Assembly: GCA_963622735.1 (NCBI GenBank)
Contig: CAVFIT010000050.1
Span: 1 to 40,565, forward strand
DNA length: 40,565 nt
DNA from: Phocaeicola dorei
GTDB taxonomy: Bacteria; Bacillota_I; Bacilli_A; RFN20; CAG-288
Direction: 5' to 3'
Of the stretch, positions 1,839-32,308 are shown piece after piece. The translations under genes were made by a program, and so were the position numbers. The notes beneath the pieces are model-generated. The model made no database searches. It worked only from the letters and a program-made list of their open reading frames with translations, and was not told the DNA's origin. The first letter of the stretch is position 1. Each line of letters starts with the position of its first letter.

Positions 1839-1918
1839 AATAAAATACCTCCTTGTATTTATTTACATTTGTATTTTAATAAATATTTTAGAAAAGAAAA
1901 CTTATAAAATTTGAACAT

Positions 1919-1948: not shown

Positions 1949-1959
1949 GTAAAAATTAA

Positions 1960-4383: not shown

Positions 4384-4439
4384 AATTTTTTCCTTTCTTT
4401 TTTTATTATTTTAAATTTCCTTATTAAAATATATTTAAA

Positions 4440-8435: not shown

Positions 8436-8438
8436 AAA

Positions 8439-11176: not shown

Positions 11177-11196
11177 TTTTCTTCTCTCTTCCAATT

Positions 11197-11225
11197 AAAA
11201 AACTTCATAAACTAAAGTTTATGAA
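11197..11225 (-). terminator. Intra-operon hairpin (attenuator/partial terminator) just upstream of the oppB RBS
   Basis: Perfect 9-bp stem TTCATAAAC (11204-11212) / GTTTATGAA (11217-11225) with a 4-nt loop, followed on the minus strand by GTTTTTT. The stem is AT-only, so it is weak. Confidence 0.4.
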
Positions 11226-11281
11226 AATATAATACTATTAAATGATAAATTTTTAAAGTATTTTAGATAAACTTTTAAATT

Positions 11282-11321
11282 AAAAAGAGCCTAATAACTT
11301 ATTTTTTGTTATTAAGCCCTT
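11282..11321 (-). terminator. Intra-operon terminator-like hairpin after oppA
   Basis: Imperfect inverted repeat GAGCCTAATAAC (11287-11298) / GTTATTAAGCCC (11308-11319). It has a 7-bp perfect core plus GC pairs beyond one mismatch, and is followed on the minus strand by TTTTT (complement of A11282-11286). Confidence 0.45.
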
Positions 11322-11357
11322 ATTTAAATCAAATATTCGAAAAATTTCGATTATTTT

Positions 11358-14073: not shown

Positions 14074-15963
14074 TTAGTAACCAATACCAGTTGTACCAAT
14101 ATTGGTAATATCAAATGCCCATCTAGCAACTGTATAGGTTCCACTACTTGCAGACCATAATAAGTTTACACCGACATGGAATTCAGTATAAGCTTTGTCA
14201 ACTTTAGTAAATGAAATAGTAACTTCAGATGTTAAATCAGCCATACAACCAGCTTCAAAATAAGGATATGACCAATCACCTAAGAAATTCATTTGATTAT
14301 ATGTACTAGAATTAATTAAACCAATGATAAAATCAGAACAATATTTACCACTATTTAATGTAACATTTGTTGTGTTTTTATTTACAACAGAACTAGCAAT
14401 ACCAGCACTTTCAAATTCAACATCTGCAACAGATCTAGCACTTACATAAGTAAATACATCTTTATCACCAAGACTAGATGTAGTTGTAGCAGGTTCATCT
14501 AATAATGAATAAGATGTGTCACCTTTACTAATATTTGTAATAACATCAACTTTTGTTGAATCTTCTGAATTTTTATTATAAAACACGTAACCTTTCTTAG
14601 ATTCGTCTTCTTGAGTAGGATCAGTTAAAACTGAACCAAAGCCAGAAACTAATGTTTCTTCAACTGCATCTTGAGTGAATTTCTTTTTAGCTACAGTAGG
14701 TGTTGCAAATCTAGGTAATAAATATGCCAAATTTTCAGGAGTATATCCATCAGGTAATTCACTTACTTCTTTATAATTACCAAATGTTCCTGTTTCATCA
14801 TCAACAGTAGCTGTAAACCAACCAAATGTTTCTTCAATAGTATAGTTTTTACCACTAGCAATTGCTTTTAATGCAGTATCAATACCTGGATCAGTAATAG
14901 GATCAGGTTGACCTGTTGTAGAAATATAATTTTCAACTGCAGCAATACCAACTTTATCACCTACTTCTAAAATAGAAGCACTTAATAAGCCTGTTTTTGT
15001 ACCTGAAGTAATATATGTGAATATAACTGGAGCTTCTGTAACAACTTTTTTACCATCTTGATCATAATAAGATACAGGTTGATAATCAATTTCAGCATTA
15101 CCAATACCATATCCAGCAGCTTTAATATTAGTTAAAGAATATCCTAAACCATATAAGATGAAATTTTCAGTAGCTTCACTAGTTAATTGTAATATTTCTT
15201 TTCCATCATCATCTTTTGTTGTAACTGCATCAGTAAGAGCGGAAATTGGGAAATCAGCACCAACATAGAAATCAGTTAATTCATTACCTGTAGGACCTTG
15301 TTGAACATTTAAATCAGTGCCAAATCTATCTGACATTGTATAGTAATAAACTTCACTATCTGCGCCAAGTAAGTATCCGATTTTAGCACTACTTTGTAAA
15401 AAGCCTACATATTGTTCATTATGGACTGTACCTGTTTGATTACCAACAAATCCATTATCGTCAATAATAAATCCATTACTATCTTCAGCAAGATCTTCTA
15501 CTGTGTAATTTTTTACAACATCCTTTGTTTCTTCATAGAATCTCTTCTTTAAAGCAGAAACACCTGTAATAGTTAAATTAGCTCTAACACCTTCAGCTTG
15601 AACACCATTTTGAATTCTTAAAGAAATAGTGCCTTCACTAGTAACAGTTAATTTATGACCTGCTAAGCTAGCATAGTCACTACCACCAGTAAGAGTAACT
15701 GTATAGTTATTATCACTAGGAGTTACTTGTTGAGAATTGACATCAAATAAATTGATGTAATCATCAATACTAATTGTAGAACCAATAGTGACAACTGTAT
15801 CAGCGCTTTTATTAATTGTAATTCTTTGAACTGTAGCATCTCCACTAGTTTGGGATGTAGATGTAGAAGTAGTTCCACTAGAAGTAGTTCCACCACAGCT
15901 TGTTAATGTAGTACCTGTTAATAATAATGCTACACATAAAGGTAAGATAACTTTCTTTTTCAT
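14074..15963 (-). CDS. Orphan surface lipoprotein with an N-terminal Ig-like (Big_2-like) domain
   Basis: 629 aa. Lipobox TLTS-C-GG and a Thr/Ser tether (TTSSGTTSTSTSQTS). The segment VTIGSTISIDDY...HKLTVTSEGTISLRIQ...ANLTITG resembles a bacterial Ig-like domain. I see no catalytic motif in the rest. AGGAGAG RBS, 22 nt upstream of oppA. Confidence 0.75.
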   Translation of the reverse strand: MKKKVILPLCVALLLTGTTLTSCGGTTSSGTTSTSTSQTSGDATVQRITINKSADTVVTIGSTISIDDYINLFDVNSQQVTPSDNNYTVTLTGGSDYASLAGHKLTVTSEGTISLRIQNGVQAEGVRANLTITGVSALKKRFYEETKDVVKNYTVEDLAEDSNGFIIDDNGFVGNQTGTVHNEQYVGFLQSSAKIGYLLGADSEVYYYTMSDRFGTDLNVQQGPTGNELTDFYVGADFPISALTDAVTTKDDDGKEILQLTSEATENFILYGLGYSLTNIKAAGYGIGNAEIDYQPVSYYDQDGKKVVTEAPVIFTYITSGTKTGLLSASILEVGDKVGIAAVENYISTTGQPDPITDPGIDTALKAIASGKNYTIEETFGWFTATVDDETGTFGNYKEVSELPDGYTPENLAYLLPRFATPTVAKKKFTQDAVEETLVSGFGSVLTDPTQEDESKKGYVFYNKNSEDSTKVDVITNISKGDTSYSLLDEPATTTSSLGDKDVFTYVSARSVADVEFESAGIASSVVNKNTTNVTLNSGKYCSDFIIGLINSSTYNQMNFLGDWSYPYFEAGCMADLTSEVTISFTKVDKAYTEFHVGVNLLWSASSGTYTVARWAFDITNIGTTGIGY

Positions 15964-15984: not shown

Positions 15985-17844
15985 TTATTCACCAGTTGAT
16001 GAACTTGTTGTATTAGCAATACTTGGGCTAATTGCTAAATAATAATAACTACTTGATTTTAAAACTGTACATTCAATAGAAATAGTTTTACTAACTCCAT
16101 TAATTGTTACATTTTTAGAATAAATACCTGTAGTTGTATCATATGCATATCCAGCATCTATAAACTTATCATTAATACTTGTAACCATATTTTTTAATTC
16201 AGTAGTAGAAGATGTTGAATATGTTAAATAGTATGTATATTCTTCAGTAGTTGAATCTTGTGTTCCATTAACACCATATGTAGGATAAACTCCACCTAAA
16301 GTAGGAACATATGTATCTAATACTTCTGCAGTCATACCTTCACCAAATATTTCTTCAGGTGTAGCAACACCAGTTTTAGTAGAATTATAATATCCACAAG
16401 AATCTTCCCATGAATCAGACCACTTTAACTCATCGCAGTTATTTTTAACTGGTAAGTTAATAACTGAACCTGTACTAACTTTATTAATATTAGAATAAGT
16501 AATTTTATCAACAATTGTCATTGGGAATGCATATGAAGTACTATATTGATAATAAGTTTCATATGTATTAGTAAATGAAATTGTAGGATTTGTAGGATCA
16601 CTATTATCTAAAGTAATTGTAAATCCATCAAAACTAAACGCTGTTTCAATAGGTGAATAGTTTTTAGAATATTCTTGAACTGGGAAGACATCATCTCTAA
16701 ATACATAAACTGATTTAGTTGATGTAGATTTACTAGTATCTTTTTTAAATAAGGCACTAGATAAAGAATATTCAGGGAAGAAATCTTCTTTTAATGTAAC
16801 ACCTGTTGTTTCAGATCCATCTTGATAGAAATTTTCTTTAACTTTACTAAGTTGAATAACACCACTTTTAGTAGTTTGCATAGCGCTAGTAGACATTAAT
16901 GCTTTACCACTATCGTCTACACTATAAGAATATAATATAAAGTCTTTACCATCAGTTTTACCATCATATTCATATGTAGCAGATTGAGATTCTGTTTCTG
17001 AATATGTAATTGAAGCTTGTCTAGTAGAAACAAATTCAAAATTACAAGCTTGTAATGATTTAATAGCTGCATCTAAAGTTGCATCAGTGTCAGTTAATAC
17101 TGTAGGTAAGCTAGTTAAATTATCACCAAACTTAGTAAATTTACCACTGACACTAACATCTACATTAGCACCACTTGATGTAGTAGCTGCTTCATAAGTA
17201 ACATTACAACTAATAACATTATTTTCAACTGAGAAAGTACAAGCTTTAGCCTCAACAGATAATCCACCACTTAAGTTAACACCAAGTGCAATTAAAGCTT
17301 CTTTTTGGCTAGAAGAAACAGTTCTTAATTTAAATCCGCTTACTGCTTTTGTAAAATCGTCAATAGTAAGATTTGTAAATGGATTAATAAAACTTGTGTT
17401 ATCCCAACTAAGAGGTTTACCTGTAGATGCAGAAGTAAGAACTTTATTCTTAATTTGATTGTCTAAACCTAAATAAGTACTACAAGCATAACCAAGTTTA
17501 TTTTTTGTGTAATAAACTTTATCATATGCTGTATCTTTTGTAGGAACATCTCCAGTAGATGCAACAGGTTCATAACTAATAGAATTATAAACTCCATCAC
17601 TAATAGAAACATCGTTGAGATATTTTGAAACTGAACTGCCTGATTTTAAAAGTACAGTAGCTTCAAATAAATAATTTTGTTTCAATTGAGCTAAATAGGA
17701 TTCAAAGACAGCAACATCAGAATCTACACTAGAAGTAGAAGAAGATGTGGTAGAAGAAGTAGAATTTGAGTTATTTTGACCACCACAACTTGTTAATGTT
17801 ACGCCTAATAAAGCCAAAGCAATAATAGACTTAAATTTTTTCAT
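15985..17844 (-). CDS. Orphan surface lipoprotein, first gene of the opp transcription unit
   Basis: 619 aa. Lipobox TLTS-C-GG and a Ser/Thr tether (NNSNSTSSTTSSSTSS). The composition is beta-rich and Thr/Ser/Tyr-rich, with no motif I can assign. AGGAGAA RBS. Confidence 0.75.
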   Translation of the reverse strand: MKKFKSIIALALLGVTLTSCGGQNNSNSTSSTTSSSTSSVDSDVAVFESYLAQLKQNYLFEATVLLKSGSSVSKYLNDVSISDGVYNSISYEPVASTGDVPTKDTAYDKVYYTKNKLGYACSTYLGLDNQIKNKVLTSASTGKPLSWDNTSFINPFTNLTIDDFTKAVSGFKLRTVSSSQKEALIALGVNLSGGLSVEAKACTFSVENNVISCNVTYEAATTSSGANVDVSVSGKFTKFGDNLTSLPTVLTDTDATLDAAIKSLQACNFEFVSTRQASITYSETESQSATYEYDGKTDGKDFILYSYSVDDSGKALMSTSAMQTTKSGVIQLSKVKENFYQDGSETTGVTLKEDFFPEYSLSSALFKKDTSKSTSTKSVYVFRDDVFPVQEYSKNYSPIETAFSFDGFTITLDNSDPTNPTISFTNTYETYYQYSTSYAFPMTIVDKITYSNINKVSTGSVINLPVKNNCDELKWSDSWEDSCGYYNSTKTGVATPEEIFGEGMTAEVLDTYVPTLGGVYPTYGVNGTQDSTTEEYTYYLTYSTSSTTELKNMVTSINDKFIDAGYAYDTTTGIYSKNVTINGVSKTISIECTVLKSSSYYYLAISPSIANTTSSSTGE

Positions 17845-17958: not shown

Positions 17959-17986
17959 AAAAAAAAGAGGTTTTTTAAAAACCTCT
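17959..17986 (-). terminator. Rho-independent terminator of the atp operon
   Basis: Palindrome AGAGGTTT...AAACCTCT (17966-17986) overlaps the atpC TAG stop. On the minus strand it is followed by a run of 7 T (complement of A17959-17965). Confidence 0.7.
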
Positions 17987-18398
17987 ATAATTTATTGTTA
18001 AGTTTAAGCCTATTTAAAGCCTTTTTCAAAGAAATTTCAGCTTTAGTGTAAGCTTCACTTTCTTTATCTAAAACAGTTTTAAGACTATCTTCAGCTCTTT
18101 GTTTAGCATTTAAAGCTCTTTGATAGTCTAATTCATCTTGAGTTTCAAAAGCGTCAGCTAAAACATTAACCTGATTTTGACTTACTTGTAAAATACCACC
18201 TTCAATAGCGATAGGATAAAAATTACCATCTTTTTTGTAATTCATAATAGAAATTTCTATCACCCCTACTAAAGGAGTATGGCCTTTTAAAATACCTATA
18301 TCTCCATCAGAAAGAGTAAAATTTGCCATTTCTACATTATCTTCAAATTTTTTTCCATCTGGAGTGGTGATTTTAAGTAAGAAACTATTATCTGCCAT
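17985..18398 (-). CDS. atpC: F1 ATP synthase epsilon subunit
   Basis: 137 aa in the last position of the atp operon. Typical N-terminal beta-sandwich (LKITTPDG...) and a C-terminal helical hairpin. Confidence 0.9.
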   Translation of the reverse strand: MADNSFLLKITTPDGKKFEDNVEMANFTLSDGDIGILKGHTPLVGVIEISIMNYKKDGNFYPIAIEGGILQVSQNQVNVLADAFETQDELDYQRALNAKQRAEDSLKTVLDKESEAYTKAEISLKKALNRLKLNNKL

Positions 18399-18403
18399 TT
18401 AAA

Positions 18404-20679
<2,276 letters not shown>

Positions 20680-20691
20680 AGCATCTCCTAA

Positions 20692-22197
20692 TTATTTATA
20701 TGCTTTTGCAAATTCATTTATAGCGTTATTTAATCTTGTCTCATATTCTTTAGACATTTCTTTTTTAGTTTCAAGTTCACTAATTAAATCGCTATGATTT
20801 TTTTGAATATATAAATATAATCCATCTAAGAAAGGATGAACCTTATTTAAATCTAAATCATCTAAGTAATAATGTTGAGCAGCAAATAATTCAATTACTT
20901 GTCTAACAAATGACATTACTTGATATTGACCTTGTTTTAATAATTCCATTAAAACTTTACCATGAACTAATGTCTTTTTAGTAGAAGCGTCTAAATCAGA
21001 ACCGAATTGAGCAAAAGATTGTAATTCTTGATAGTTAGCTAGTTCAATCTTTAAAGATTTAGATACTTGTTTAACGCATTTAAATTGAGCCGCAGAACCA
21101 ACTCTTGAAACTGATAAACCAGAATCAACAGCAGGACGTTGACCAGCGTTAAATAAATCACTAACTAAGAAAATTTGACCATCTGTAATTGAAATAACAT
21201 TAGTAGGAATATAAGCTGAAATATCACCTGATTGAGTTTCAATAATAGGTAAAGCGGTAATAGATCCACCACCGTGTTCTTGATTTAATCTACAAGCTCT
21301 TTCAAGTAATCTAGAATGAATATAGAAAACATCACCTGGATAAGCTTCTCTACCAGGAGCTCTTTTTAAAAGTAGTGATAATGTTCTATAGCTAACAGCA
21401 TGTTTAGATAAATCATCATAAACAATTAAAACATCTTTACCTTGTTCCATCCATTCTTCTGACATAGTAACCCCAGAATAAGGAGCAATGTATTTTAAAG
21501 GATCAAGTTCAGCAGCATTAGCAGCAACTATAGTTGTATATTCCATAGCGCCTTTTTCTTTTAATTTATCATACACTCTAACAACTGTAGATGTTTTTTG
21601 GCCTATAGCTACATAAACACAAAGTACATTTTTACCTTTTTGATTAATAATTGTATCAATAGCAATAGCAGTTTTACCTGTTTGTCTATCACCAATAATT
21701 AATTCTCTTTGGCCTCTACCAATAGGAATCATAGCATCAATAGCTTTAATACCAGTTTCTAAAGGAGTGTCGACTGACTTTCTAGTCATAACACCTGGAG
21801 CGATTCTTTCAATAGGTCTACTTTTATTAGTTTTGATTTCACCTAAACCATCAATAGGTTGACCTAAAGCGTTAACTACTCTTCCAAGCAATTCATCACC
21901 AACAGGAACTTCAACTACTTTACCAGTTCTTTTAACAATATCACCTTCGTGAATGAGTTTATCATTTGAGAAGATAACAGCGCCAACTGAATCTTGGTTA
22001 AGATTCATAACCATACCAAAAACATCATTAGGGAATTCTAATAATTCACCTAACATTGCGTTTTGAAGACCATAAACATTAGCAATACCATCACCAACTG
22101 TAACAATTTTACCTATATCAGTAGAAACTGTCTTTTGTGAATAATTTTTAATTTGCTGCTTAATTAAGGCAGAAATATCATCTGTTTTAATTGCCAT
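20692..22197 (-). CDS. atpA: F1 ATP synthase alpha subunit
   Basis: 501 aa. Walker [19 protein letters not shown] and the conserved block [21 protein letters not shown]. Confidence 0.97.
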
Positions 22198-22736
22198 TAG
22201 TTAGTCCCTCCTTTTAATTCTTGTTTTAAAGATAAGATTCTTCCTTGTATAGAACCATCATATACTTTGTCATCTAATATAACTTTGATACCACCAATAA
22301 TTGATGGATCAACTTTGTTTTCAAGTTCAATCTTATAACTTAATTTCTTTTCAAGTGCAGATTCAACATTACTTATTTCTTGCTTATCTAATTTAGTAGC
22401 AGAATATATAATTCCTGATTTAATTCCTATTGAATTATTAGCCATTTTTATAAATTCTCTAAAAATATAAATAAGTCTATAAGCTCTATTGTTACTACAT
22501 ATTACCTTAATAAAAGTTTTAAGGTATTCAATATCAACTATTTTAAATGCTTGATCAATAATTTCTTCTTTTTCAGACTGATTTAAAAATGCAGAATCTA
22601 GAAGTTTTATAAATTCAGGATTCTCATTTAAAGATTGATAAATAACTTTAGCTTGTTGTAAGTACTCTTCAACATTATTTTGTTCAAGAGCAAGACTTAG
22701 TAAAGCTTGTGCATATCTTGTAGGTATTGTTTCCAT
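22197..22736 (-). CDS. atpH: F1 ATP synthase delta (OSCP) subunit
   Basis: 179 aa. Assigned from its position between atpF and atpA and the OSCP-like start [12 protein letters not shown]. The start of atpA overlaps its stop by 1 nt. Confidence 0.85.
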
Positions 22737-22738
22737 AA

Positions 22739-23281
22739 TTATTTACTATCTTTAGAAATATCATCTACAAAAGAATCAACCATCTTTCTTGTATCATCTT
22801 TACTAACTTCTCTTTCAAGTAATTGACTAGAAGCTTGTAAAGCGATATCGACAATTTCTTGTTTGCATTCTTCAATAGCTTGTTTCTTTTCAAGTTGAAT
22901 ATCTCTTTCAGCTTGTTCGCGTTTTAATGCGAGTTCTTGTTTTAATTCTTCTTGATATCTTAGTTTATCTTCTTCAGCTTGTTTTTTGCCTTGTAAAATA
23001 ATTTCAGATGCTTGTTTTCTAGAATTATTTAAGTTTTCTTCAGCTTGTTTATTATTTAAATCAGCTTCAGCGTTTAATTTTTGAGCATTATCAAGATTAG
23101 AATCAACAAATTCTTTTCTTTTTTGAATATAGTTATGAACAGGTTTATATCCTAACTTAATAACTATAAAAACTAAAACAAAAAAAGCTAATAATTGAGT
23201 TATAAAAGCCCAAAGATTTGGAATTAATTTACCATTAATTTCAATAGTTGGTACATCAGCTAAAATATTTAAAAAACTCAT
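22739..23281 (-). CDS. atpF: Fo ATP synthase b subunit
   Basis: 180 aa. One N-terminal TM helix followed by a long charged helix (AEENLNNSRKQASEII...), in the expected operon position. Confidence 0.88.
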   Translation of the reverse strand: MSFLNILADVPTIEINGKLIPNLWAFITQLLAFFVLVFIVIKLGYKPVHNYIQKRKEFVDSNLDNAQKLNAEADLNNKQAEENLNNSRKQASEIILQGKKQAEEDKLRYQEELKQELALKREQAERDIQLEKKQAIEECKQEIVDIALQASSQLLEREVSKDDTRKMVDSFVDDISKDSK

Positions 23282-23304
23282 AATAACTCCTTCCTAAAAT
23301 TAAA

Positions 23305-23532
23305 TTACATAACAAGACACATAATAGCGATAACTAAACCGTAAATACCAGTAGTTTCGTCTAAAGCACAACCTAAAATCATAGTTGTACGAAGTTTAGA
23401 ATACATTTGAGGGTTTCTTGCCATACCATCGATAGCGTGAGAACAAATAAAGCCTTCACCAATACCAGAACCTAAACCGGTTAATACAGCAATACCAGCA
23501 CCTATATACTTTAATCCATCCATATTTTCCAC
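23305..23532 (-). CDS. atpE: Fo ATP synthase c subunit (proteolipid) with Na+-type ligand signature
   Basis: 75 aa helical hairpin. GxGxGxG (G19-G25), loop R39-N40-P41, and helix-2 carboxylate E59 in ALDETTGIY. See the finding on this gene. Confidence 0.93.
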   Translation of the reverse strand: MENMDGLKYIGAGIAVLTGLGSGIGEGFICSHAIDGMARNPQMYSKLRTTMILGCALDETTGIYGLVIAIMCLVM

Positions 23533-23545
23533 CTCCTTTCAAATA

Positions 23546-24334
23546 TTAATTAGCACCTTCCTGTTTAAGGAATACTTGATCATCTTCTTCATCTTGAGGA
23601 CCTTCTTGAGACACCCAAATCATAGTAAGAACACAGAAGACTAATGTTTGAATTAATCCACTGAATAAGTCAAAATACAAATGTAACCATGGTGTAATAA
23701 ATGGAGCTACAATCACTGAATTTAATCCTGGTACAGAAATAAATGCAAATATTGCAGCAGATAGTTGTTGTAAATAGAAATAAACTAATGTCATTAAACA
23801 ATAACCAACTAGAGCATTACCAAATAAACGTAATGTAATTGATAATAAAGGAGCCCACATTGATAATAAGTTAATTGGTAAAAATACCGCGATAGGATCT
23901 ATATATCTTTTAAAATATCCCCACTTATTAGTTTTAATAGCAGTGGCATGAATCATTACAAAAGTAATTAATCCTAGACTTAATGGAACTGCTAATTCAG
24001 TTAACGGGTTAGGTAAACCAGTTAAACCGATGATGAAGCAGAAGAATATATACATAGCAAGAGCCATTATATATCCAGCAAACTTTCTCCATCTTTTACC
24101 CATAATCTCGATTACTTGATTATCTAATAATTCAACAAACGCACAAATTAGAGTAATAAATTTATTTTTATCTTTCTTAGTAGGATCTTTTTTACGAAAC
24201 ATGAACCATATCAAAACACTAAATAAGGCGACAAACCCCATTACTGCAAAAGACATGATCATTTCACCACTATAAGTAGTTTCACCCCATTTAAGCGAAT
24301 TAGAAAAATCTAACGCCATTAAATTTAAACTCAT
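23546..24334 (-). CDS. atpB: Fo ATP synthase a subunit
   Basis: 262 aa polytopic protein. Conserved stator arginine in LSITLRLFGNALVG. Confidence 0.92.
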   Translation of the reverse strand: MSLNLMALDFSNSLKWGETTYSGEMIMSFAVMGFVALFSVLIWFMFRKKDPTKKDKNKFITLICAFVELLDNQVIEIMGKRWRKFAGYIMALAMYIFFCFIIGLTGLPNPLTELAVPLSLGLITFVMIHATAIKTNKWGYFKRYIDPIAVFLPINLLSMWAPLLSITLRLFGNALVGYCLMTLVYFYLQQLSAAIFAFISVPGLNSVIVAPFITPWLHLYFDLFSGLIQTLVFCVLTMIWVSQEGPQDEEDDQVFLKQEGAN

Positions 24335-24340
24335 TTTTTA

Positions 24341-24784
24341 TTAATCCTTATTTTCATTTTCTTGAATAGGTTGAATGTTTTCTTCTTCAACTGGTTTAAT
24401 TAATGATAATATGCCAGTCATAACAAAAAAAGGAACACCACTAGCAAGAATATTCATATAAATTATCTTATTTTGATCAGCACCTTTAGTTAAGTAAATA
24501 ACTAAAGTAGATAAACCAATAGCAGCAAACATCATTAAAAAACGAATGAAGTGTCCTGCACCTAACATAACCATTTCACTTTTTTTAGCATCAGGTTTTA
24601 ATCCATCACCAGATTTAATTAAAAGTACTAAATTTACACATGCACATACCCCACTAATAGCTAAACTAGTAGCGATGTAATAATTATTCCAAATTAAACC
24701 TATTAAACTAATAGCAATTAAAACAATAATTACTAACCAGTAAATTAAGCATGATTTTGTTAAATAAGGTAATTTTTTTATCAT
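24341..24784 (-). CDS. AtpI-like small membrane protein, first gene of the atp operon
   Basis: Four hydrophobic helices immediately upstream of atpB. The ORF-track start (24829) is a TTG that runs through the likely promoter. I use the ATG at 24784 (MIKKLPYL...), which is preceded by AAAGGAA. The AtpI assignment rests on position only. Confidence 0.6.
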   Translation of the reverse strand: MIKKLPYLTKSCLIYWLVIIVLIAISLIGLIWNNYYIATSLAISGVCACVNLVLLIKSGDGLKPDAKKSEMVMLGAGHFIRFLMMFAAIGLSTLVIYLTKGADQNKIIYMNILASGVPFFVMTGILSLIKPVEEENIQPIQENENKD

Positions 24785-24809
24785 CTTGTCATTCCTTTCG
24801 ACCCACTCT

Positions 24810-24815
24810 ATTATA
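24810..24815 (-). promoter_or_regulatory. Candidate -10 element of the atp operon promoter
   Basis: The minus strand reads TGTATAAT (TATAAT at 24815-24810), about 25 nt upstream of the ATG at 24784. The -35 is weak (TTATCT with a 17-nt spacer). Confidence 0.35.
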
Positions 24816-24868
24816 CATTCAAAAAACAAAAAAGATAAAGAAAAATCGCATTTTAAAAATTTATTTTT

Positions 24869-24888: not shown

Positions 24889-24929
24889 TATTAAATAAAT
24901 CTAAGTTATTAAAAACTATTAAACATATT

Positions 24930-24961
24930 AAAAATCCTGTTAACTTTTTTTATTAACAGGA
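24930..24961 (-). terminator. Rho-independent terminator of the beta-helix/GLUG/lipoprotein operon
   Basis: 9-bp stem TCCTGTTAA (24935-24943) / TTAACAGGA (24953-24961), followed on the minus strand by TTTTT. It sits 9 nt after the stop at 24970. Confidence 0.65.
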
Positions 24962-24969
24962 CTTACTTT

Positions 24970-25638
24970 TTATACTGTAGGTAAACTAATATTAGGCATT
25001 GAATATTCATAATTCAATGTAATTGTACATGTATATGATGCTTTAGTTAAATATTCAAATTCTAGTTTAGCGATTTTTTCAACACTATCAATTTTTTGAA
25101 CACTACCTTTTATAGTCACATCACTATTTACATCACTTATTTCTTTGGTAAAAAATGCTGTAGTATCATCTTTTAATACTTTTGAAGTAAATGAAGAACT
25201 AGTTCCACTAATTTCTTGTAACACTTGGAAATTATAACTAATAGAAAATACTTTAATTGTATTAGTTTCATCTTTAATAGAATACTTACCATCATCACCT
25301 AATGTATATGTTTTACTAGGTGAATAATATATATTAAACGCTTTAGTTTTACTATCACTTCCAGAAGGATTATCAACACTATTTATAATAGCTTTTGTAC
25401 CATAATTATGTAAGATATTTGACTCAGTATTTACTTCATAATTAGAATAAGTAGAAGAAATAGTCTGCCCTTTGTTAGAAATATTAGTAGAACTTCTAAT
25501 AATATAAGGACTTTTCTCAGCTTGTATAATAGTTTGTTTAATATCAGCTATACCTGAACTAGAATTATTATTACCTCCACATGAAGTCATTGATACTAAT
25601 AATAATGATAAAGGTAATATTACTAATTTCTTATTCAT
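24970..25638 (-). CDS. Orphan small lipoprotein
   Basis: Start reassigned to the ATG at 25638 (MNKKLVILPLSLLLVSMTS-C-GGNNNSSSG), which is preceded by AGGAGGG. The ORF-track TTG at 25674 overlaps the upstream gene. No assignable motif. Confidence 0.7.
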   Translation of the reverse strand: MNKKLVILPLSLLLVSMTSCGGNNNSSSGIADIKQTIIQAEKSPYIIRSSTNISNKGQTISSTYSNYEVNTESNILHNYGTKAIINSVDNPSGSDSKTKAFNIYYSPSKTYTLGDDGKYSIKDETNTIKVFSISYNFQVLQEISGTSSSFTSKVLKDDTTAFFTKEISDVNSDVTIKGSVQKIDSVEKIAKLEFEYLTKASYTCTITLNYEYSMPNISLPTV

Positions 25639-25654
25639 AATCTTTTCCCTCCTT

Positions 25655-28600
25655 TTATAAATTAATATCAACAATAGAACTTGAAGAAGAATAAATATCT
25701 TCTATTTGTTTAATATATTCTTCATATTGAGTTTTACATTGATCATATTTTGCTTTTAAATCAGCAACACTAGTTTTATCTTCACTAGATAAATACTTAT
25801 AAACATTACTTGCTTTATATAAAGGATATCTATAAGTAGAGACATTGCCATCTAACATATCAATATATTGTTTATAGTCAGCTGTAGTAAATGATAATTT
25901 ACTCTCATCTTTTGATTTAACTATAGGTCTAGATAAGCTAGTATCAAATGACCAATCTAAGTTAGTATCTAAATCTCTTAAGAAAGTATTTTTCTCCCAC
26001 CATGATTGTGAACTAAAATTAGCATAAGAAATAGAATCACCAAAACTAATAGCTGTTTTTGTTGGAGTAATAGAATCACCTAAATCTGAATAATCTTCAG
26101 CGATATAATTAACATTAGATCCACTATAAGAAGATGTATTTGCATCATGAGAACCAATAAAGTTATTAAAGTAAGTAGGTTGAGTCATAGATTTAATTTT
26201 TAAATCTGAAAGAATGTTATTAGCAACAATCTTGCCACCTTCTTTATTATGTCCAGCAATAGCACCTACTTCTTTTTTAGCAAATGTTACTTCTAATAAA
26301 ATAACTGCATTATTAATATTTGTCTTTGCTCTATTTCTACCAATTAAGCCAACTGCAGCTCCTTCAGTATTAATTTTTCCTTGAGCGTAAATATTTTCCA
26401 TATTTACTGTGACATCTTGAGAAGAACCACCTACACCACCAGTAAGTAAACCAACATATTTATTACAATCGATTTCACAATCAATAATATTTACATTTCT
26501 AACATTAGATACAGTTTCATCTCCTCTAAATCTTCCTACTAAAATAGCGTAATATCCTTCACTACCTTCAGCATCAGGATTTGTAATAACTTTACTATTT
26601 GTAACATTAACATTTTCAATAGTACCGCCAAACACTTGACCAGCAAGAATACATGAATCACCAGATCCAGAAGTATAACAAGAATCAAAATTAATATTTT
26701 TAACTGTTCCTTTTAATTCTTTAAATAATGCTGTTTTAGGATCAGTAGAAACTAATAAAAGATTAGAAATAGTATGCCCTTGTCCATCTAATACACCTGC
26801 AAATGAAATAGCAGTATCAGCTGAAAATTTCCAATCATAAGAAGAACAATCAATATCATTAATTAATCTAAATGTTGAACTTTTTGTAGATTCATTAATA
26901 GTCATATCATATAAATCTTCTACACTAGAAATATTAACAACTGTTGAAATCTCTTTAGCTGAATAGATAATAGAATCACCATTAGTAGATGTAAGTAGTA
27001 AATATGCATCATACTCTTTAGAAATATCTATCAAGTTTGTATCAATAGAAATAGTAGAAGATGTAAGTACAATATTATTACCTCCATCTACTTTACCATC
27101 TACATTAGCGTTAGATTTAATATCACTAGCACTAGGAGTTGTACTATTTTTATTTAATATTAAATAAGATGCACTAACATTAGCTTGATATACATTTCCA
27201 GATAAAGTAATTCTAGCTTTAGTAGTATAAGTAGAATCTTGTTTTAAATAAGAGGCTTTAAAATTAACTATACTAGCACTTTCACCTACCTTAGATTCAT
27301 AAAAATACTGTTTAACTTCTTTTATTTCATTATATTTAGTTAATGTAATAGTAAATGTCTTTGTAGTTAATTTATATGCACCTACATTTTCTTCAACTAA
27401 TATTGGCTCACTAACAGTATAATCACTTCCTTTTGTTAATATCTTTGTATTATCAAATCTATTTTCAATTTTAAATTCAGGAATTGTATTAAATGTAGCT
27501 GTATCGCCTTTATAATAATAAACTTCTTCAGGATAATCTTTAACTAAGCCGATACCTAAATCTCTATTAGGGTTAGAAATAGTCTCTTCTTTAGGTAGAT
27601 TTACAATATTATCAAACTTAATATCTGAAATATATGTATAACCATTTTTAGTACCACTTAAAATCTTAATTTTTAAAGAATCAAGTATTTTAGAAGAGTT
27701 TCCATTAGACATTACACCTGCACTAGTGTTATATTCTTTTAATCCTGCAGTTATTTCTTTGTAACTAGAATTAGAAAAATCATATTGATATAACTTAACA
27801 TAACCAGATAATGTAAGTTCTACTCTATATTTATTCCATATACCTTCTTTAGGAGCAGATTCATATGTGTAATCTTGACTATTATAAACAAACGAATTTC
27901 CACTACTTGATAAAGTCATACCAAAGGCTTTATTTGTTCCACCATTTAACGAAATTTCAACTCCGTTAGTATCTCCTTCAAACATGGTATAAAATTCAAA
28001 CGCAACTTTTTTAACACCGGTTGAATCTGTACTAGTTACATTTGTATTATTAGCATTTATTTTTGTGGTATATACATTAGCGGTAGATAATTTACCTGAT
28101 TTAATTTCAAGCATTTTCTTATCTTTTATAGGTAAATTAACATTATTTACTACACTTTCTTTAATATTAGCTAAACCTAAATTACCACTAGCAGTGTATT
28201 TAAAATAGTTACCTATATCAATACCTGTTTTATATGAATTAAAATCTTCATTAAACGCTAAAGGTAAATCCTCTTCTTTAGAATTAGAAGAATGTAATAC
28301 TGTTAAATCAAATGTTTTATCAACACTATATTCTTCACCATTTAATTCATAAGTAATAGTAGCAGTTAATCTAACATTTTTATCTACTAAACTATCTTGA
28401 CTTACCCTACCTATAATATCACTTACTTTACCTGAGTCAGCTTTAGATACTTCTATTGTAATAACACTTGTATCAGAAGAAGCCCATGTAATAGAAGTAG
28501 AATATAAACCAGTATGAGGTAATCTAATATCACTTACTATCTTAGTTGTATCAATATTTAACTCTAATAATTCATAAGCTTTAGTAAGTTCATCAGGGTT

Positions 28601-28714
28601 TTGACTAGTTGCAGTAGCATAATTTATATTCTTTAAAATTGATGAAGAAACATTGTTTCCTCCAATAAGAGAAAAACATGTTGCTAAACATACAATAATT
28701 AATGATTTTTTCAT
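25655..28714 (-). CDS. Large secreted/surface multidomain protein with a GLUG-type repeat region
   Basis: 1019 aa with an N-terminal signal/anchor MKKSLIIVCLATCFSLIGG. An Ig-like segment (IRLPHTGLYSTSITWASSDTSVITI) resembles the degenerate bacterial Ig domains of Firmicute surface proteins. Residues ~150-370 look like a ConA/LamG-type beta-sandwich, by inference. FAGVLDGQGHTISNLLL is followed by periodic rungs (VKNINFDSC, IENVNVTNS, VRNVNIIDC, VGLLTGG, VGLIGRN, VGAIAGHN), as in GLUG-motif proteins. AGGAGGG RBS, 14 nt after the upstream stop. Confidence 0.6.
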   Translation of the reverse strand: MKKSLIIVCLATCFSLIGGNNVSSSILKNINYATATSQNPDELTKAYELLELNIDTTKIVSDIRLPHTGLYSTSITWASSDTSVITIEVSKADSGKVSDIIGRVSQDSLVDKNVRLTATITYELNGEEYSVDKTFDLTVLHSSNSKEEDLPLAFNEDFNSYKTGIDIGNYFKYTASGNLGLANIKESVVNNVNLPIKDKKMLEIKSGKLSTANVYTTKINANNTNVTSTDSTGVKKVAFEFYTMFEGDTNGVEISLNGGTNKAFGMTLSSSGNSFVYNSQDYTYESAPKEGIWNKYRVELTLSGYVKLYQYDFSNSSYKEITAGLKEYNTSAGVMSNGNSSKILDSLKIKILSGTKNGYTYISDIKFDNIVNLPKEETISNPNRDLGIGLVKDYPEEVYYYKGDTATFNTIPEFKIENRFDNTKILTKGSDYTVSEPILVEENVGAYKLTTKTFTITLTKYNEIKEVKQYFYESKVGESASIVNFKASYLKQDSTYTTKARITLSGNVYQANVSASYLILNKNSTTPSASDIKSNANVDGKVDGGNNIVLTSSTISIDTNLIDISKEYDAYLLLTSTNGDSIIYSAKEISTVVNISSVEDLYDMTINESTKSSTFRLINDIDCSSYDWKFSADTAISFAGVLDGQGHTISNLLLVSTDPKTALFKELKGTVKNINFDSCYTSGSGDSCILAGQVFGGTIENVNVTNSKVITNPDAEGSEGYYAILVGRFRGDETVSNVRNVNIIDCEIDCNKYVGLLTGGVGGSSQDVTVNMENIYAQGKINTEGAAVGLIGRNRAKTNINNAVILLEVTFAKKEVGAIAGHNKEGGKIVANNILSDLKIKSMTQPTYFNNFIGSHDANTSSYSGSNVNYIAEDYSDLGDSITPTKTAISFGDSISYANFSSQSWWEKNTFLRDLDTNLDWSFDTSLSRPIVKSKDESKLSFTTADYKQYIDMLDGNVSTYRYPLYKASNVYKYLSSEDKTSVADLKAKYDQCKTQYEEYIKQIEDIYSSSSSIVDINL

Positions 28715-28728
28715 TTTCTATTTCCCTC

Positions 28729-30228
28729 CTATTTTGTTTCAAATATAGCACCTAAAGGTGTACCATTTTCACCCATTGTATAAAATGGTGAAGTGGATTT
28801 AACTTTTAAGAAATCACCTAAATTAACTGAACCATCTTTATTTCTTAAATTTTTATGAACATCATTAATTGTAGTAGCAGGTACTCCTTGAGAAGCCATT
28901 TCTTGAGGAGTAGTTACACTTACAAATGGATTTTCATAAGTAGAAGAAGTTCCTCTATATGTAGTAGATGAATAATCAATCTTTGTTGGCGCTCCAATTA
29001 CTAAATTAGATAAACCATTATAGAAAGCTGAATAAGAACCACTTCCTTTATATTCATCTTTAGAATTAGCAATATGAGATTGTAAAGTAATAGGATTAAT
29101 TACATCCCCATAACAATAAGATAAGCAGTTCTTATAATAGTTAATACTAGTTTGAGCATCTCTACATGTTGAAAAATTATATCCATCTTCATCTCTAGTA
29201 CCATTGTTATAAGCTGTACAATTTTCAAAACGAATAGTTCCTGGATTTGAGTTATCTGTAAATCCTGTAGCCATATTATTAAAAGCTACACAATTAATTA
29301 CACTATGAGGAACAGAAATTTGCTCACCACCTAATTTAAAACCATTACCATCTGAATTAGATGTACCAATTCCTTGACTTGTCATACCATTATTAAAGGC
29401 TACACAATTTTTTATAGTGACTGGTCCAATAGCTCCAGATTCACCTTTTGTATATAAATCCCAACCATCATCAACATTGTTATAAGCAATACATCCATCA
29501 AACACATTACCTACACCAGTAGTAAGTTTACATGCAAATCCATCACTATCTTCACCAGAAGGGTCATGGTTATCATGAGAAGTACAATTTAAAATCGTAT
29601 TATATGAAGGCCATTGATCCATACTTTCATAACTAGAACCTGCTCTACCAAGTTGAAGACCAGTATCTTGACAATTATTAATATCAAGATATTCAACAGT
29701 ATTATAATTACCACCTATATAAACACCATTATCACCAGCACCATATACTTCAAATCCTTTAATATGCCAGTAATCTGAATTTAAAGTAATACCTCTATTA
29801 GAAGAAGCAAATCCCATACTAGAAAAATCAAACTTAACTTTTACATAATCCCCATTACTATCTTTAACTGGTTCAATTAACTTTTCTTCATCAAAAGATG
29901 TAGCAAGTACATTATGTTCTTTTTCATAGTCTTTAGAGATAGATAAAGGATAAGAATATTTATAAGTACCTTCTAATAAATAAATCTTTCCACCTTTATC
30001 AAGTCTTGAAATAGCAGCTTCAAAACTTAGTGGTGAATCTTTACTACCAGTATTATCTACTTTGCCATTTGTAGAAACATATATTTCTTTTAAAAACACA
30101 ATACCTGAATCATCACTTGATATTTGACTTGTTGGATTAGTTGAAGTAGATGAACCTGAGTTATTAGTGTTACATCCACTTACTAATAATGTTATTACCA
30201 TTAGAGGTAGTATTTTTTTAATCTTCAT
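28729..30228 (-). CDS. Surface lipoprotein with a right-handed parallel beta-helix, pectate-lyase (PL9)-like
   Basis: 499 aa. Lipobox LLVSG-C-NTNN plus a Ser/Thr tether. DUF1565-like start IYVSTNGKVDNTGSKDSPLSFEAAISRLDKGGKIYLLEGTY. Periodic rungs ILNCTSHDN, FDGCIAYNN, IKNCVAFNN, VINCVAFNN, FENCTAYNN and YKNCLSYC. Acidic/basic blocks DSDGFACKL, VDDGWDLY and DGNGFKLGG are typical of PL9-type lyases. The fold call is stronger than the family call. Confidence 0.6.
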   Translation of the reverse strand: MKIKKILPLMVITLLVSGCNTNNSGSSTSTNPTSQISSDDSGIVFLKEIYVSTNGKVDNTGSKDSPLSFEAAISRLDKGGKIYLLEGTYKYSYPLSISKDYEKEHNVLATSFDEEKLIEPVKDSNGDYVKVKFDFSSMGFASSNRGITLNSDYWHIKGFEVYGAGDNGVYIGGNYNTVEYLDINNCQDTGLQLGRAGSSYESMDQWPSYNTILNCTSHDNHDPSGEDSDGFACKLTTGVGNVFDGCIAYNNVDDGWDLYTKGESGAIGPVTIKNCVAFNNGMTSQGIGTSNSDGNGFKLGGEQISVPHSVINCVAFNNMATGFTDNSNPGTIRFENCTAYNNGTRDEDGYNFSTCRDAQTSINYYKNCLSYCYGDVINPITLQSHIANSKDEYKGSGSYSAFYNGLSNLVIGAPTKIDYSSTTYRGTSSTYENPFVSVTTPQEMASQGVPATTINDVHKNLRNKDGSVNLGDFLKVKSTSPFYTMGENGTPLGAIFETK

Positions 30229-30281
30229 AATCTTTCCTTTCTATTATAATTAGCAAAAGCATATATTATAATAATATAAAT

Positions 30282-30295
30282 TGTAAGGGTTTACA
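30282..30295. promoter_or_regulatory. Palindromic operator copy 1 (TGTAA-N4-TTACA), overlapping the -35 region of the minus-strand operon promoter
   Basis: TGTAAGGGTTTACA. On the minus strand a TATAAT lies 17-18 nt downstream (plus-strand ATTATA at 30265-30270). Confidence 0.5.
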
Positions 30296-30380
30296 TTAAA
30301 ATAGTATTTTTTTGTGCCTTTAGCATAAAGTTATTAACTTTTAGTTGATTATATAGTAAAAAAAGATAATAATATGAGAA

Positions 30381-30394
30381 TGTAAGGCTTTACA
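30381..30394. promoter_or_regulatory. Palindromic operator copy 2 (TGTAA-N4-TTACA), in the leader of the plus-strand lipoprotein gene
   Basis: TGTAAGGCTTTACA matches copy 1 at 13 of 14 positions. It lies downstream of the candidate -35 TTGATT (30345-30350) and the A/T-rich -10 region, and 25 nt upstream of the ATG at 30419. Confidence 0.5.
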
Positions 30395-30418
30395 ATGCCT
30401 GAATCAAAGGAGATAAAA

Positions 30419-31525
30419 ATGAAAAAATTATTAAAAGTCATGCCTATTGCAGTCGCTATGTTTTCATTAGCATCATGTGGAGGTAATCAAACAAGTAGTG
30501 TAGCAACTTCTTCTTCAACACCTACAAGTGTTGCTACATCATCTACTACCCCAACACCTACTTCAAGTAGTACAACACCTACACCTACTCCAACTAGTAC
30601 AACACCTACTGCTAAAGTAGTTACAAAGACAGTAGATATGGCCTCAATTCCTGGAAAATCAAAATCTGATGTAGATTGGACATTAGCTGATGGATTTTTT
30701 ACTTGTCATCAAGTTAGTTCAGATGCTAATACAGATATTAAAACAGATGGTACATCCGATAAAGACTTAAAAGCATCTATTCAATTTACTACTACTGGTG
30801 CAGGTAAAGTTACAATGACAGCTAAATCTGGTGGTAAAGGTAATGCTTCTCAAGGTTTATATAGAAAATTATTCTTAGTTAAATTAAATAGTAAAGGAAC
30901 TGCTATTGATAAATTTATTCAAGATTCAAAAGTAGGACTTGACTATGGTGATTTAGAATGGGATTTCTATAGTGCAGGTAAATATGCAATCTTATCAGAT
31001 GCTTCATGTAAAATTTCCGCTTTATCAGTTACATATACTGAAGGTGCAACTTCAACTGAACCTACATATTCAATTCCTACAGCTTCTGATGCATCAATAT
31101 TTGAACCTATAAATATTAGACCAGGTACATATTCTTCTGCTACATATGGTCAATTTAAATTAACAGGTGATGTTTTCTTTAAAGGTGCTAGAACAATTAC
31201 TGGTATTACAGATCAATTCGACAATTATTTGACTATAAATGGTCAAGATAACGATAAACCTGGAAAATTTACTCTTAATAATTCTAATGGTGAAGCTGGT
31301 ACATTAACTATTTATGCTGCAGAAAGTGCAGAATTAGGTACAGTTAAAGTCGGCCATAAATCTAATAGTGGTGATATCTCATACGAGGAAACTCCAATTC
31401 AAAAAGATTCTAATAAAGTTCTTGCTCCTATATCAATTTCTGTTGCTGCTACAGATACAACTGTTGATGTTATCTGTGATACAGGTGCTATCAACATCTT
31501 CTATGCAACATTCCAAGCTATTTAA
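30419..31525 (+). CDS. Orphan lipoprotein with a Thr/Pro-rich tether and two beta-rich modules
   Basis: Start reassigned to the ATG at 30419 (MKKLLKVMPIAVAMFSLAS-C-GGN), preceded by AAGGAG. The ORF-track ATG at 30395 would include that RBS. The tether is SSSTPTSVATSSTTPTPTSSSTTPTPTPTSTTPT. Two modules of about 140 aa end in ...ISALSVTY and ...INIFYATFQ. Confidence 0.7.
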   Translation: MKKLLKVMPIAVAMFSLASCGGNQTSSVATSSSTPTSVATSSTTPTPTSSSTTPTPTPTSTTPTAKVVTKTVDMASIPGKSKSDVDWTLADGFFTCHQVSSDANTDIKTDGTSDKDLKASIQFTTTGAGKVTMTAKSGGKGNASQGLYRKLFLVKLNSKGTAIDKFIQDSKVGLDYGDLEWDFYSAGKYAILSDASCKISALSVTYTEGATSTEPTYSIPTASDASIFEPINIRPGTYSSATYGQFKLTGDVFFKGARTITGITDQFDNYLTINGQDNDKPGKFTLNNSNGEAGTLTIYAAESAELGTVKVGHKSNSGDISYEETPIQKDSNKVLAPISISVAATDTTVDVICDTGAINIFYATFQAI

Positions 31526-31543
31526 TCTTTAACTAGCTTATCT

Positions 31544-31586
31544 AAAGTGTTTTATTCAAATGGATAAAGCACTTTTTTCGTTTTTT
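31544..31586 (+). terminator. Rho-independent terminator of the plus-strand lipoprotein gene
   Basis: 11-bp stem AAAGTGTTTTA (31544-31554) / TAAAGCACTTT (31565-31575) with one G-U pair, followed by TTTCGTTTTTT. Confidence 0.65.
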
Positions 31587-31678: not shown

Positions 31679-32308
31679 ATGACAAAAATTGTATTAATAG
31701 GTGGTGGCAGTTCTTCAGGTAAAACTTATATCACTAAAAAAGCTTTAGAACAACTTGGAGCAGATGATATTACATTAATTAGTTTTGATGACTATTATAA
31801 AGATCTTTCTCATCTTTCTAGAGAAGAAAGAAAAAAGCAAAACTTTGATCACCCTAACGCCTTTGATTGGCCTTTAATTTTAGAACAAGTTAACGCTTTA
31901 AGAAACGGTCAAACAATTACAAAACCTATATACGATTTTAACATCCAATCTAGATCAGATAAAACTGAAACAGTTACTCCTAAAAAGGTTATAGTATTTG
32001 AAGGTATTTTAGCTCTTGAAAATCCTAAATTAAGAAAAATGGCAGATTTAAAAATATTTGTCGCTGCATCTCCAGAAAGACGTTTCTTACGTAGATTAAT
32101 TAGAGACCACTCTGAAAGAGCTGATAGACCTTATGATTTTATTATCAACCAATATTTTGATACAGTTAAGCCTATGTATGATGAATACGTAAAACCTACT
32201 CAATTCTATGCTGATACTATTATTTATAATGAAGGTACAGTTAGTGGTGAATGTAAAGCTACAAATATCTTAACTACTTTATTAAAATCTGTATTAAACG
32301 AAAAATAA
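31679..32308 (+). CDS. udk: Uridine kinase
   Basis: 209 aa. P-loop IGGGSSSGKT and the NFDHPNAFD motif. AGGAG RBS. Confidence 0.9.
   Translation: MTKIVLIGGGSSSGKTYITKKALEQLGADDITLISFDDYYKDLSHLSREERKKQNFDHPNAFDWPLILEQVNALRNGQTITKPIYDFNIQSRSDKTETVTPKKVIVFEGILALENPKLRKMADLKIFVAASPERRFLRRLIRDHSERADRPYDFIINQYFDTVKPMYDEYVKPTQFYADTIIYNEGTVSGECKATNILTTLLKSVLNEK

Follow-up and report, generated by a model that had tools for sequence, protein, structure and literature searches.

What might four genes for exported proteins, set between the atp operon and udk in a low-GC member of Bacilli, do at the surface of the cell that carries them? We have considered this question for contig CAVFIT010000050.1 (assembly GCA_963622735.1), the whole stretch of which, 40,565 nucleotides (nt) long, is hereafter called the window. 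The four genes encode a lipoprotein of polysaccharide lyase (PL) family 9, here abbreviated as PL9, a large secreted protein called BIG, a small lipoprotein, LP222, and a divergently transcribed lipoprotein, LP376. Our results make it probable that they constitute a conserved, sugar-regulated cell-surface cassette for the capture and cleavage of homogalacturonan in uncultured, low-GC RFN20-like Bacilli. A previous sequence-only reading of the same DNA had proposed that a polysaccharide is bound or depolymerised by an apparatus tethered to the membrane, a view supported by every test that we ran. The four open reading frames (ORFs) on which it was based are all present, with the following positions and associated terminators:

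28729-30228, minus strand: PL9 lipoprotein gene, 499 amino acids (aa), lipobox LLVSGC, N-terminus MKIKKILPLMVITLLVSGC
25655-28714, minus strand: BIG gene, 1019 aa, secreted multidomain protein
24970-25638, minus strand: LP222 gene, 222 aa, lipobox MTSC, N-terminus MNKKLVILPLSLLLVSMTSC
30395-31525 (as ORF), plus strand: LP376 gene, divergent, lipobox LASC, Ser/Thr/Pro tether
about 24926-24964, minus strand: intrinsic terminator of the three-gene operon, 13-bp stem (core CCUGUUAA...UUAACAGG), then a U-run
31544-31575, plus strand: intrinsic terminator 3' of LP376, RNA fold of -14.2 kcal/mol, z=-4.4

The genes of PL9, BIG and LP222 are three head-to-tail ORFs separated by gaps of 14 nt (PL9-BIG) and 16 nt (BIG-LP222), and the RNA of the terminator that follows them folds at -14 kcal/mol (z=-5.6), with none of 200 shuffles being equally stable; the minus-strand operon with short spacers of 14-16 nt and a terminal hairpin, as proposed earlier, is thus borne out. 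The AGGAGGG ribosome-binding site (RBS) that had been attributed to all three genes is found ahead of BIG and LP222 only, the PL9 gene having the weaker GAAAGGAAAG. With regard to gene starts, the mechanical ORF of LP222 extends over 24970-25674 and its likely start is the ATG at 25638, which is served by the AGGAGGG site. The mechanical start of LP376 is the ATG at 30395 (MPESKEIK...); because a GGAG site precedes the ATG at 30419 and the orthologs begin with MKK, the latter is most likely the true start, giving a protein of 368 aa, not 376.

The catalytic part of our interpretation depends on the PL9 protein, which matches Pfam PF22842 (Pel9A-like beta-helix) with 40.4 bits against a cut-off of 25.2, and which aligns along residues 37-370 to Pel9A (PDB 1RU4, E=2.3e-37). 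Its second match in PDB is 5OLQ, a rhamnogalacturonan lyase of the same family (E=3.2e-10), while the NCBIfam models PelX and PelN give partial matches with scores far below their equivalog cut-offs, so that the protein is not considered an ortholog of either. The Ca2+ ligands of Pel9A are Asp209, Asp233 and Asp237 and its base is Lys273 (PMC10992409, a review of pectinolytic lyases). In the alignment with 1RU4, these residues correspond to D229, D253, D257 and K298 of the window protein, the D254 of which aligns with Asp234 of Pel9A, and none of these five columns varies among 20 distinct cassette orthologs having 53-87% identity. The Ca2+-binding Asp cluster and catalytic Lys that the sequence-only reading had recommended to look for are therefore in place. 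Given the Pfam and PDB matches combined with these invariant columns, the 499-aa lipoprotein is assigned to PL9 as a member with predicted intact active site. It has in common with Pel9A (PelL of Dickeya/Erwinia chrysanthemi, 1RU4), PelX and the surface rhamnogalacturonan lyase of Bacteroides thetaiotaomicron (5OLQ) the right-handed beta-helix catalytic domain, the conserved Asp cluster with its Lys base and an extracellular location. It differs from them in being a lipoprotein of a low-GC member of Bacilli, in having about 130 C-terminal residues that remain unaligned to Pel9A and in being always encoded together with a partner of about 1000 aa, of GLUG/lectin-like type, and two lipoproteins. 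Another PL9 homolog of similar identity and different length lies in an unrelated context of cellulosome type that lacks BIG.

The binding part of the interpretation depends on LP376, which had been described as an orphan; single-sequence searches give no match for it. A profile built with 11 LP376 orthologs, after trimming off the signal peptide and linker (profile A5), matches PDB 8X8H with E=9.9e-9, separately for the two halves of the protein, and the carbohydrate-binding module (CBM) 5FU5, of family CBM77, with E=0.002. Entry 8X8H bears the label pectate disaccharide-lyase in one place and 'carbohydrate binding domain of a putative pectate lyase' in another. The two halves can be delimited as follows:

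LP376 residues about 76-218, plus strand: module 1, first of two tandem CBM77-like beta-sandwiches
LP376 residues about 222-376, plus strand: module 2, second CBM77-like beta-sandwich

Pfam searches of the 11 orthologs detect PPC in five and CBM77 in two, the latter below threshold (best E=0.0018). The AlphaFold2 model of LP376 has two beta-sandwiches of moderate confidence (predicted local distance difference test, pLDDT, of 66), for which Foldseek returns 8WC1 (TMt 0.62) and 8X8H (TMt 0.55) with probability 1.00, in addition to tandem-CBM proteins, with SGBP-B of Bacteroides (7KWB) as the top fold match. Profiles restricted to the modules show that modules 1 and 2 match each other and that a module of the same type is present at the N-terminus of the pectinesterase lipoproteins of carbohydrate esterase family 8 (CE8) found beside the cassette in three related loci, L001, L017 and L014 (i-E 1e-5 to 4e-7 among 1028 ORFs). 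The link between LP376 and pectinesterases first obtained with jackhmmer was inflated by the signal peptide and Ser/Thr linker, the module-only match being weaker but real. CBM77 is known to bind homogalacturonan (PMC9668655). Because the Pfam CBM77 model remains sub-threshold, the modules of LP376 are named CBM77-like here and are not called members of CBM77; with two such predicted modules the protein can no longer be considered an orphan. The CBM77 module of a Ruminococcus flavefaciens pectate lyase (5FU5) and 8X8H/8WC1 are all beta-sandwiches of about 120-150 residues tied to pectin enzymes, and the likeness in profile and fold extends to both modules of LP376, which differ in standing alone on a lipid-anchored tether instead of being appended to an enzyme, and in having a ligand that is predicted.

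To define the distribution of the cassette, loci were fetched via BIG homologs, via PL9 homologs and via a scan of one genome per GTDB species, which gave 18 species with the cassette. PL9 is immediately followed by BIG in all loci with upstream flank (the 18 GTDB species plus metagenome contigs), while iterative searches show that PL9 is preceded by a divergently oriented LP376 ortholog, and BIG directly followed by a lipobox-bearing LP222 ortholog, in every locus that reaches far enough. The co-occurrence of the four genes, which the sequence-only reading had left to be checked, is consequently found in the same order in all related loci having enough flank, and the refutation offered by that reading, a lack of any co-occurrence, is clearly contradicted. 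The arrangement is intact even when PL9 identity decreases to 46-51% and the cassette lies away from atp; the cassette behaves as a unit. Lipobox-like motifs are present in all LP222 orthologs, in nearly all those of PL9 and in all those of LP376 except a split copy in L014, the window proteins having VSGC (PL9), MTSC (LP222) and LASC (LP376) by the lipobox test [LVI][ASTVI][GAS]C.

The hosts are all uncultured metagenome-assembled genomes (MAGs) from gut or rumen that carry the labels Bacillales, Bacilli or Erysipelotrichaceae; in GTDB, one of them (UBA7642) falls within family CAG-288 of order RFN20. Two contigs carry other labels: L012 (CAVHUN010000035.1, which also has the atp operon) was deposited as 'uncultured Prevotella sp.' and L025 (CAVCCX010000022.1) as 'Bacteroides uniformis', probably in consequence of mislabelling or misbinning. 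The cassette is adjacent to atp in about six to eight species, down to 37% identity of BIG, and is found elsewhere in others. The earlier description of the locus as accessory, wedged between atp and udk, is thus correct insofar as the position changes among species, but not with respect to base composition, since GC content is about 28% over the whole window without any shift at the cassette, nor with respect to the atp position, which is common to such distant relatives. For the same two reasons a recent horizontal insertion in this genome was rejected.

The genes surrounding the cassette in its relatives bear upon the substrate. Among 91 neighbouring proteins that were scanned there are two pectinesterases, the commonest family being that of DUF4143/AAA_14 ATPases; pectin-specific neighbours are occasional, namely CE8 in L001, L017 and L014 and a glycoside hydrolase of family 28 (GH28) at a distance of 8 kb in L008. 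The sequence-only reading had considered the substrate unknown. Because LP376 has CBM77-like modules and because CE8 enzymes, containing the same module, or GH28 lie beside some relatives, the combined data now point to homogalacturonan (pectin). The same architecture could serve another anionic glycan, such as rhamnogalacturonan I, host mucin or glycosaminoglycan, or microbial exopolysaccharide or capsule, in which case it would function in the foraging of host or microbial glycans or in biofilm remodelling. PL9 also holds rhamnogalacturonan lyases and a thiopeptidoglycan lyase. The position of 5OLQ as second PDB match of the lyase agrees with this possibility, as do the lack of CE8, GH28 or uronate genes that would be consistently adjacent to the cassette and the lectin-like domain of BIG, which has no assigned specificity. 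Set against it are the best matches of the lyase, all to pectate lyases (Pel9A, PelX and PelN), the resemblance of LP376 modules to CBM77 and to CBMs of pectate lyases, the pectin-specific nature of the CAZyme genes wherever these are present nearby, and the habitat, which is the plant-fibre-rich gut and rumen. On balance, we regard a substrate other than homogalacturonan as unlikely.

The divergent intergenic region between LP376 and PL9, of 166-190 nt, provides evidence for the sugar-responsive part of the interpretation, for it contains two palindromes:

30282-30295, strand not assigned: palindrome TGTAAGGGTTTACA, resembling a catabolite-responsive element (cre) or LacI operator, 54-67 nt upstream of the PL9 start codon
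30381-30394, strand not assigned: palindrome TGTAAGGCTTTACA, 25-38 nt upstream of the likely LP376 start at 30419

These are two of the three matches to TGTAA-N4-TTACA in the window, where 0.16 would be expected. Of 17 relatives, 12 have the relaxed form TGWAA-N4-TTWCA in this intergenic region (those listed are L004, L007, L010, L011, L015, L016, L019-L022 and L025); 13 of the 17 occurrences of this form across the related loci of 11-23 kb fall there, and it usually has no other occurrence in the whole locus. The cre consensus of CcpA, as established in Bacillus, is the 14-bp palindrome TGWAANCGNTNWCA. Both TGTAAGGGTTTACA and TGTAAGGCTTTACA have perfect half-sites and lack the central CG of this consensus, while several orthologous sites match canonical cre, for example TGAAAACGATTTCA and TGTAACCGATTACA. 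Because the palindrome is conserved in the divergent region and several of its copies are canonical cre sites, the pattern points to predicted control of the cassette by CcpA or a sugar-responsive regulator of the LacI type, which would fit a nutritional function. No regulator gene is linked to the cassette in the window.

The cassette may then work as follows. LP376 would be anchored by its lipid, and its Ser/Thr/Pro tether would extend the two CBM77-like modules for binding de-esterified homogalacturonan. The lipid-anchored PL9 lyase would cut the alpha-1,4-galacturonosyl backbone by Ca2+-assisted beta-elimination, with D229, D253, D254 and D257 holding Ca2+ and K298 acting as the base, to produce unsaturated oligogalacturonides. 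BIG, encoded 14 nt downstream in the same mRNA, would be a secreted non-catalytic partner, the jelly roll and GLUG-type beta-helix of which could give extra glycan binding or scaffolding. LP222, encoded 16 nt further on, would most likely retain BIG at the membrane, a role suggested by the fact that BIG has no anchor of its own. The two divergent units would share operators of the cre/LacI type, so that expression may track the availability of sugar. Uptake and catabolism of the products would be encoded elsewhere, or else left to other members of the community.

The always-present BIG is the one new component of what is otherwise a rather ordinary system for plant fibre, and its sequence was dissected into the following regions:

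28292-28552, minus strand: aBig_2 domain, residues 55-141 (Pfam PF20578, E=1e-9, 38.5 bits against a cut-off of 27)
27605-28267, minus strand: beta jelly roll of predicted legume-lectin/ConA-like fold, residues about 150-370 (AlphaFold2 and Foldseek)
26945-27562, minus strand: two Ig-like beta-sandwich domains, residues about 385-590 (strand pattern, pLDDT 72-93)
26105-26941, minus strand: right-handed beta-helix of GLUG/Peptidase_M26_N type, residues about 592-870 (profile A4)
25685-25897, minus strand: C-terminal helical region, residues about 940-1010 (model helices H944-1009, pLDDT 72-88)

BIG has an N-terminal signal peptide and no conserved lipobox; neither HExxH nor a C-terminal sortase signal is found in its sequence, in which the sole LPxTG-like string lies at residue 65, inside aBig_2. 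Direct sequence searches of Pfam, NCBIfam and PDB detect aBig_2 only, without any catalytic domain or peptidase match, and this domain also gives a profile match to its equivalent in the GH43 arabinanase AbnA (5HO0). The AlphaFold2 model has a mean pLDDT of 75.8 and values that are mostly 70-95, with lower blocks, along residues 150-870. In the jelly roll pLDDT is mostly 64-89, apart from three lower blocks of 10 residues (53-60), and Foldseek relates the region to legume lectins, CBM11 and TtX122A with TMt of 0.41-0.49, while its profile finds nothing significant in PDB or Pfam. Because sequence searches find nothing, the term 'LamG/lectin-like' that had been used for this domain is retained as a statement about the predicted fold only. 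The Foldseek results for the whole model are dominated by aBig_2 and the jelly roll and are uninformative on the beta-helix.

For the beta-helix, the GLUG model of Pfam (PF07581) gives 10.2 bits (E=1.1), below the cut-off of 20.5, whereas profile A4, in which the BIG family is combined with distant modules, matches PDB 3N6Z with E=2.6e-22, the N-terminal domain of Streptococcus pneumoniae IgA1 protease with E of about 7e-17 (6XJA/7JGJ), and 7UVK/7UVL with E=1e-15 to 1e-16. Distant homologs of the region carry the Pfam families Glug and Peptidase_M26_N. Hence, the GLUG label given to BIG by the sequence-only reading appears right at the superfamily level, on the evidence of profile searches, even if the Pfam family itself stays below threshold. 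Although its residues 592-870 or thereabouts are homologous to the beta-helix of 3N6Z and of streptococcal IgA1 proteases (6XJA, 7JGJ and 7UVK; E=1e-22 to 1e-15), BIG differs from these proteases in lacking the M26 metalloprotease domain, HExxH and LPXTG anchor, in having its beta-helix fused to aBig_2, jelly roll and Ig domains and in being genetically tied to a polysaccharide lyase. That BIG could be an M26 IgA1 metalloprotease was rejected on the same absence of HExxH and LPXTG anchor, together with that of any peptidase match in Pfam, and its beta-helix is not a diverged PL9 domain either (hhalign probability 2.9%).

A word-indexed homolog search recovered only eight full-length relatives of BIG, while an exhaustive profile search recovered about 25 full-length clusters or representatives at 50% identity; 47 distinct full-length members are now available, with 28-96% identity. 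More than 8000 proteins (8308 at E<=1e-3) match only positions of about 590-830, and most of these are giant surface proteins, the module being present in up to nine copies per protein in surface proteins of 1000-7000 aa. No part of BIG is more conserved than the beta-helix, in which 28 of 285 positions (9.8%) are at least 95% conserved in the 47 members down to 28% identity, including R728, R793, K813, K814, Q845, Y848 and D874, several of which are basic. Moreover, NTEGAAVGLIGRNR and AKKEVGAIAGHNKEGG are family-specific motifs that are invariant in alignment A1 and are not found in generic GLUG modules.

Two observations concern the reading of the BIG gene itself. AGG is nearly unused in the window (5 codons versus 283 AGA), and decoding of AGG as Met has been reported for some species of the related genus UBA7642 (bioRxiv 10.1101/2021.06.18.448887). 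The single AGG of BIG, at residue 103, stands opposite Arg or Lys in eight of nine sequences and opposite Ile in P0008; standard decoding therefore seems to apply here, and recoding to Met was discarded. In locus L010 (3177-6169) BIG is split into ORFs of 795 and 101 aa, while the close relative L016 (3096-6110) has it intact with 1004 aa; the split may stem from a frameshift or pseudogene, or else from faulty assembly.

LP222 gives no match in Pfam, NCBIfam or PDB, a profile of 16 sequences is equally without match in PDB, and no relative is detectable outside the cassette. A more specific proposal would see BIG and LP222 as obligate accessory subunits of the PL9 lyase in a lipid-anchored complex, wherein the beta-helix would bind polygalacturonate and feed it to the enzyme, or would even cleave or modify it. 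We hold this as doubtful; if true, it would provide the first biochemical function for a beta-helix module recurring in thousands of giant Firmicute surface proteins. Alternatively, BIG could itself be an unrecognised enzyme acting on pectin, or a processivity factor, with the active or binding groove in its GLUG beta-helix, and the operon would then encode two catalytic activities. This could explain why the conserved positions concentrate in this region and why NTEGAAVGLIGRNR and AKKEVGAIAGHNKEGG distinguish it from generic modules, and a polyanion would be a fitting ligand for basic residues placed on successive rungs. However, BIG shows no sequence similarity to any PL, GH or CE family, including PL9 by profile-profile comparison, the homologous domain of IgA1 proteases is non-catalytic, and a surface for contacts with the PL9 or LP222 protein would account for the conservation equally well. 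We thus consider an enzymatic BIG very unlikely. Slighter still is the chance that the cassette forms an adhesin complex, in which BIG, as a GLUG/Ig-rich surface protein akin to the giant adhesins of Firmicutes, and the lipoproteins would attach to plant particles or host surfaces and the PL9-like protein would be mainly a binder: this alternative, which the sequence-only reading had entertained and which our tests have weakened, with some room left for it in the case of BIG, draws upon the repetition of the module in giant surface proteins, its homology to the non-catalytic IgA1-protease domain and the lack of a recognisable catalytic domain in BIG. However, the full PL9 catalytic set is invariant in 20 orthologs, whereas a protein that only binds would hardly be expected to keep it, control in response to nutrients is suggested by the conserved cre/LacI-like operator, and attachment to pectin is compatible with its cleavage, so that the proposal is largely contained in that of a pectin-capturing and pectin-cleaving cassette.

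Several points weigh against the interpretation of the cassette as a system for attacking homogalacturonan. Its activity and binding are predicted from sequence and fold, and membership in PL9 does not fix specificity among anionic glycans. The connection with CBM77 is a profile-level similarity, with the Pfam model sub-threshold and the LP376 model at a pLDDT of 66. The central bases of the window palindromes (GG and GC) differ from the CG of canonical cre. The roles proposed for BIG and LP222 are those that we infer, the latter protein matching nothing. Finally, no uronate transporter or catabolic family is present in the window and none recurs among the 91 neighbouring proteins of its relatives, in agreement with the sequence-only reading, which had noticed no transporter or catabolic genes beside the cassette; given this lack of linked genes, a nutritional pay-off for this cell is a presumption.

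The comparison with polysaccharide utilization loci of Bacteroidota is instructive in this respect. Their surface glycan-binding proteins (SGBPs) and surface enzymes have in common with the cassette the combination of lipid-anchored glycan binders and a lipid-anchored enzyme (putatively endo-acting here), which are co-encoded and sugar-regulated (as predicted here). The cassette differs in that its host is a Firmicute and in having no SusC/SusD, outer membrane, linked transporter, regulator or downstream catabolic genes; indeed, no SusC/SusD family is found in the window or among the 91 neighbouring proteins of related loci. As a stand-alone, lipid-tethered protein with tandem CBM77-like modules, LP376 would be a Gram-positive counterpart of the SGBPs of Bacteroidota.

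The immediate flanks of the cassette, and other genes of the window, can be described as follows:

17985-24829: left flank, atp operon
24341-24829, minus strand: 162-aa membrane-protein ORF directly upstream of atpB, without Pfam match
31679-32308: right flank, udk/PRK, followed by a MatE transporter
14074-15963, minus strand: ORF of 629 aa without Pfam family at E<=1e-5
15985-17844, minus strand: ORF of 619 aa, likewise
2629-4383, minus strand: ORF of 584 aa, likewise
4879-14051: Opp-type ABC transporter operon
45-2520, minus strand: MCRA-family protein (oleate hydratase-like, 597 aa) adjoining a TetR regulator, at the left edge of the window

The 162-aa ORF is kept in an atpI-like position in every relative having the atp operon inside the fetched flank. 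The ORFs at 14074-15963 and 15985-17844 sit between the opp and atp operons. The components of the Opp transporter are unusually long, with 585 and 599 aa in the two ATPases, 564 aa in the permease and 897 aa in the binding protein, and are reminiscent of Mollicutes-like reduced genomes. In some relatives, genes for AAA_14/DUF4143 ATPases flank or interrupt the region between cassette and atp (L004, at 3128-4441, 5914-7233 and 14299-15555; L007, at 627-1904 and 8818-10170) and may mark a hot spot of recombination or insertion.

The enzyme and the binding modules of the cassette are ordinary members, or near-members, of known families. What is new is that an uncultured lineage strictly conserves this four-gene architecture, of which no description was found in the literature searched, and that a PL9 lyase is genetically coupled to a protein with a GLUG-type beta-helix. 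RFN20-like Bacilli, common inhabitants of the gut in animals and humans, have reduced genomes and remain uncultured, their ecological role being largely obscure. A conserved pectin cassette would give these bacteria a concrete niche, either in the attack of pectin or in the release of oligogalacturonides, and, with no uptake genes linked to the cassette, one may ask whether its products serve as public goods. In addition, the widespread and functionally uncharacterised beta-helix module of GLUG/M26_N type acquires a genetically defined partner, the PL9 lyase.

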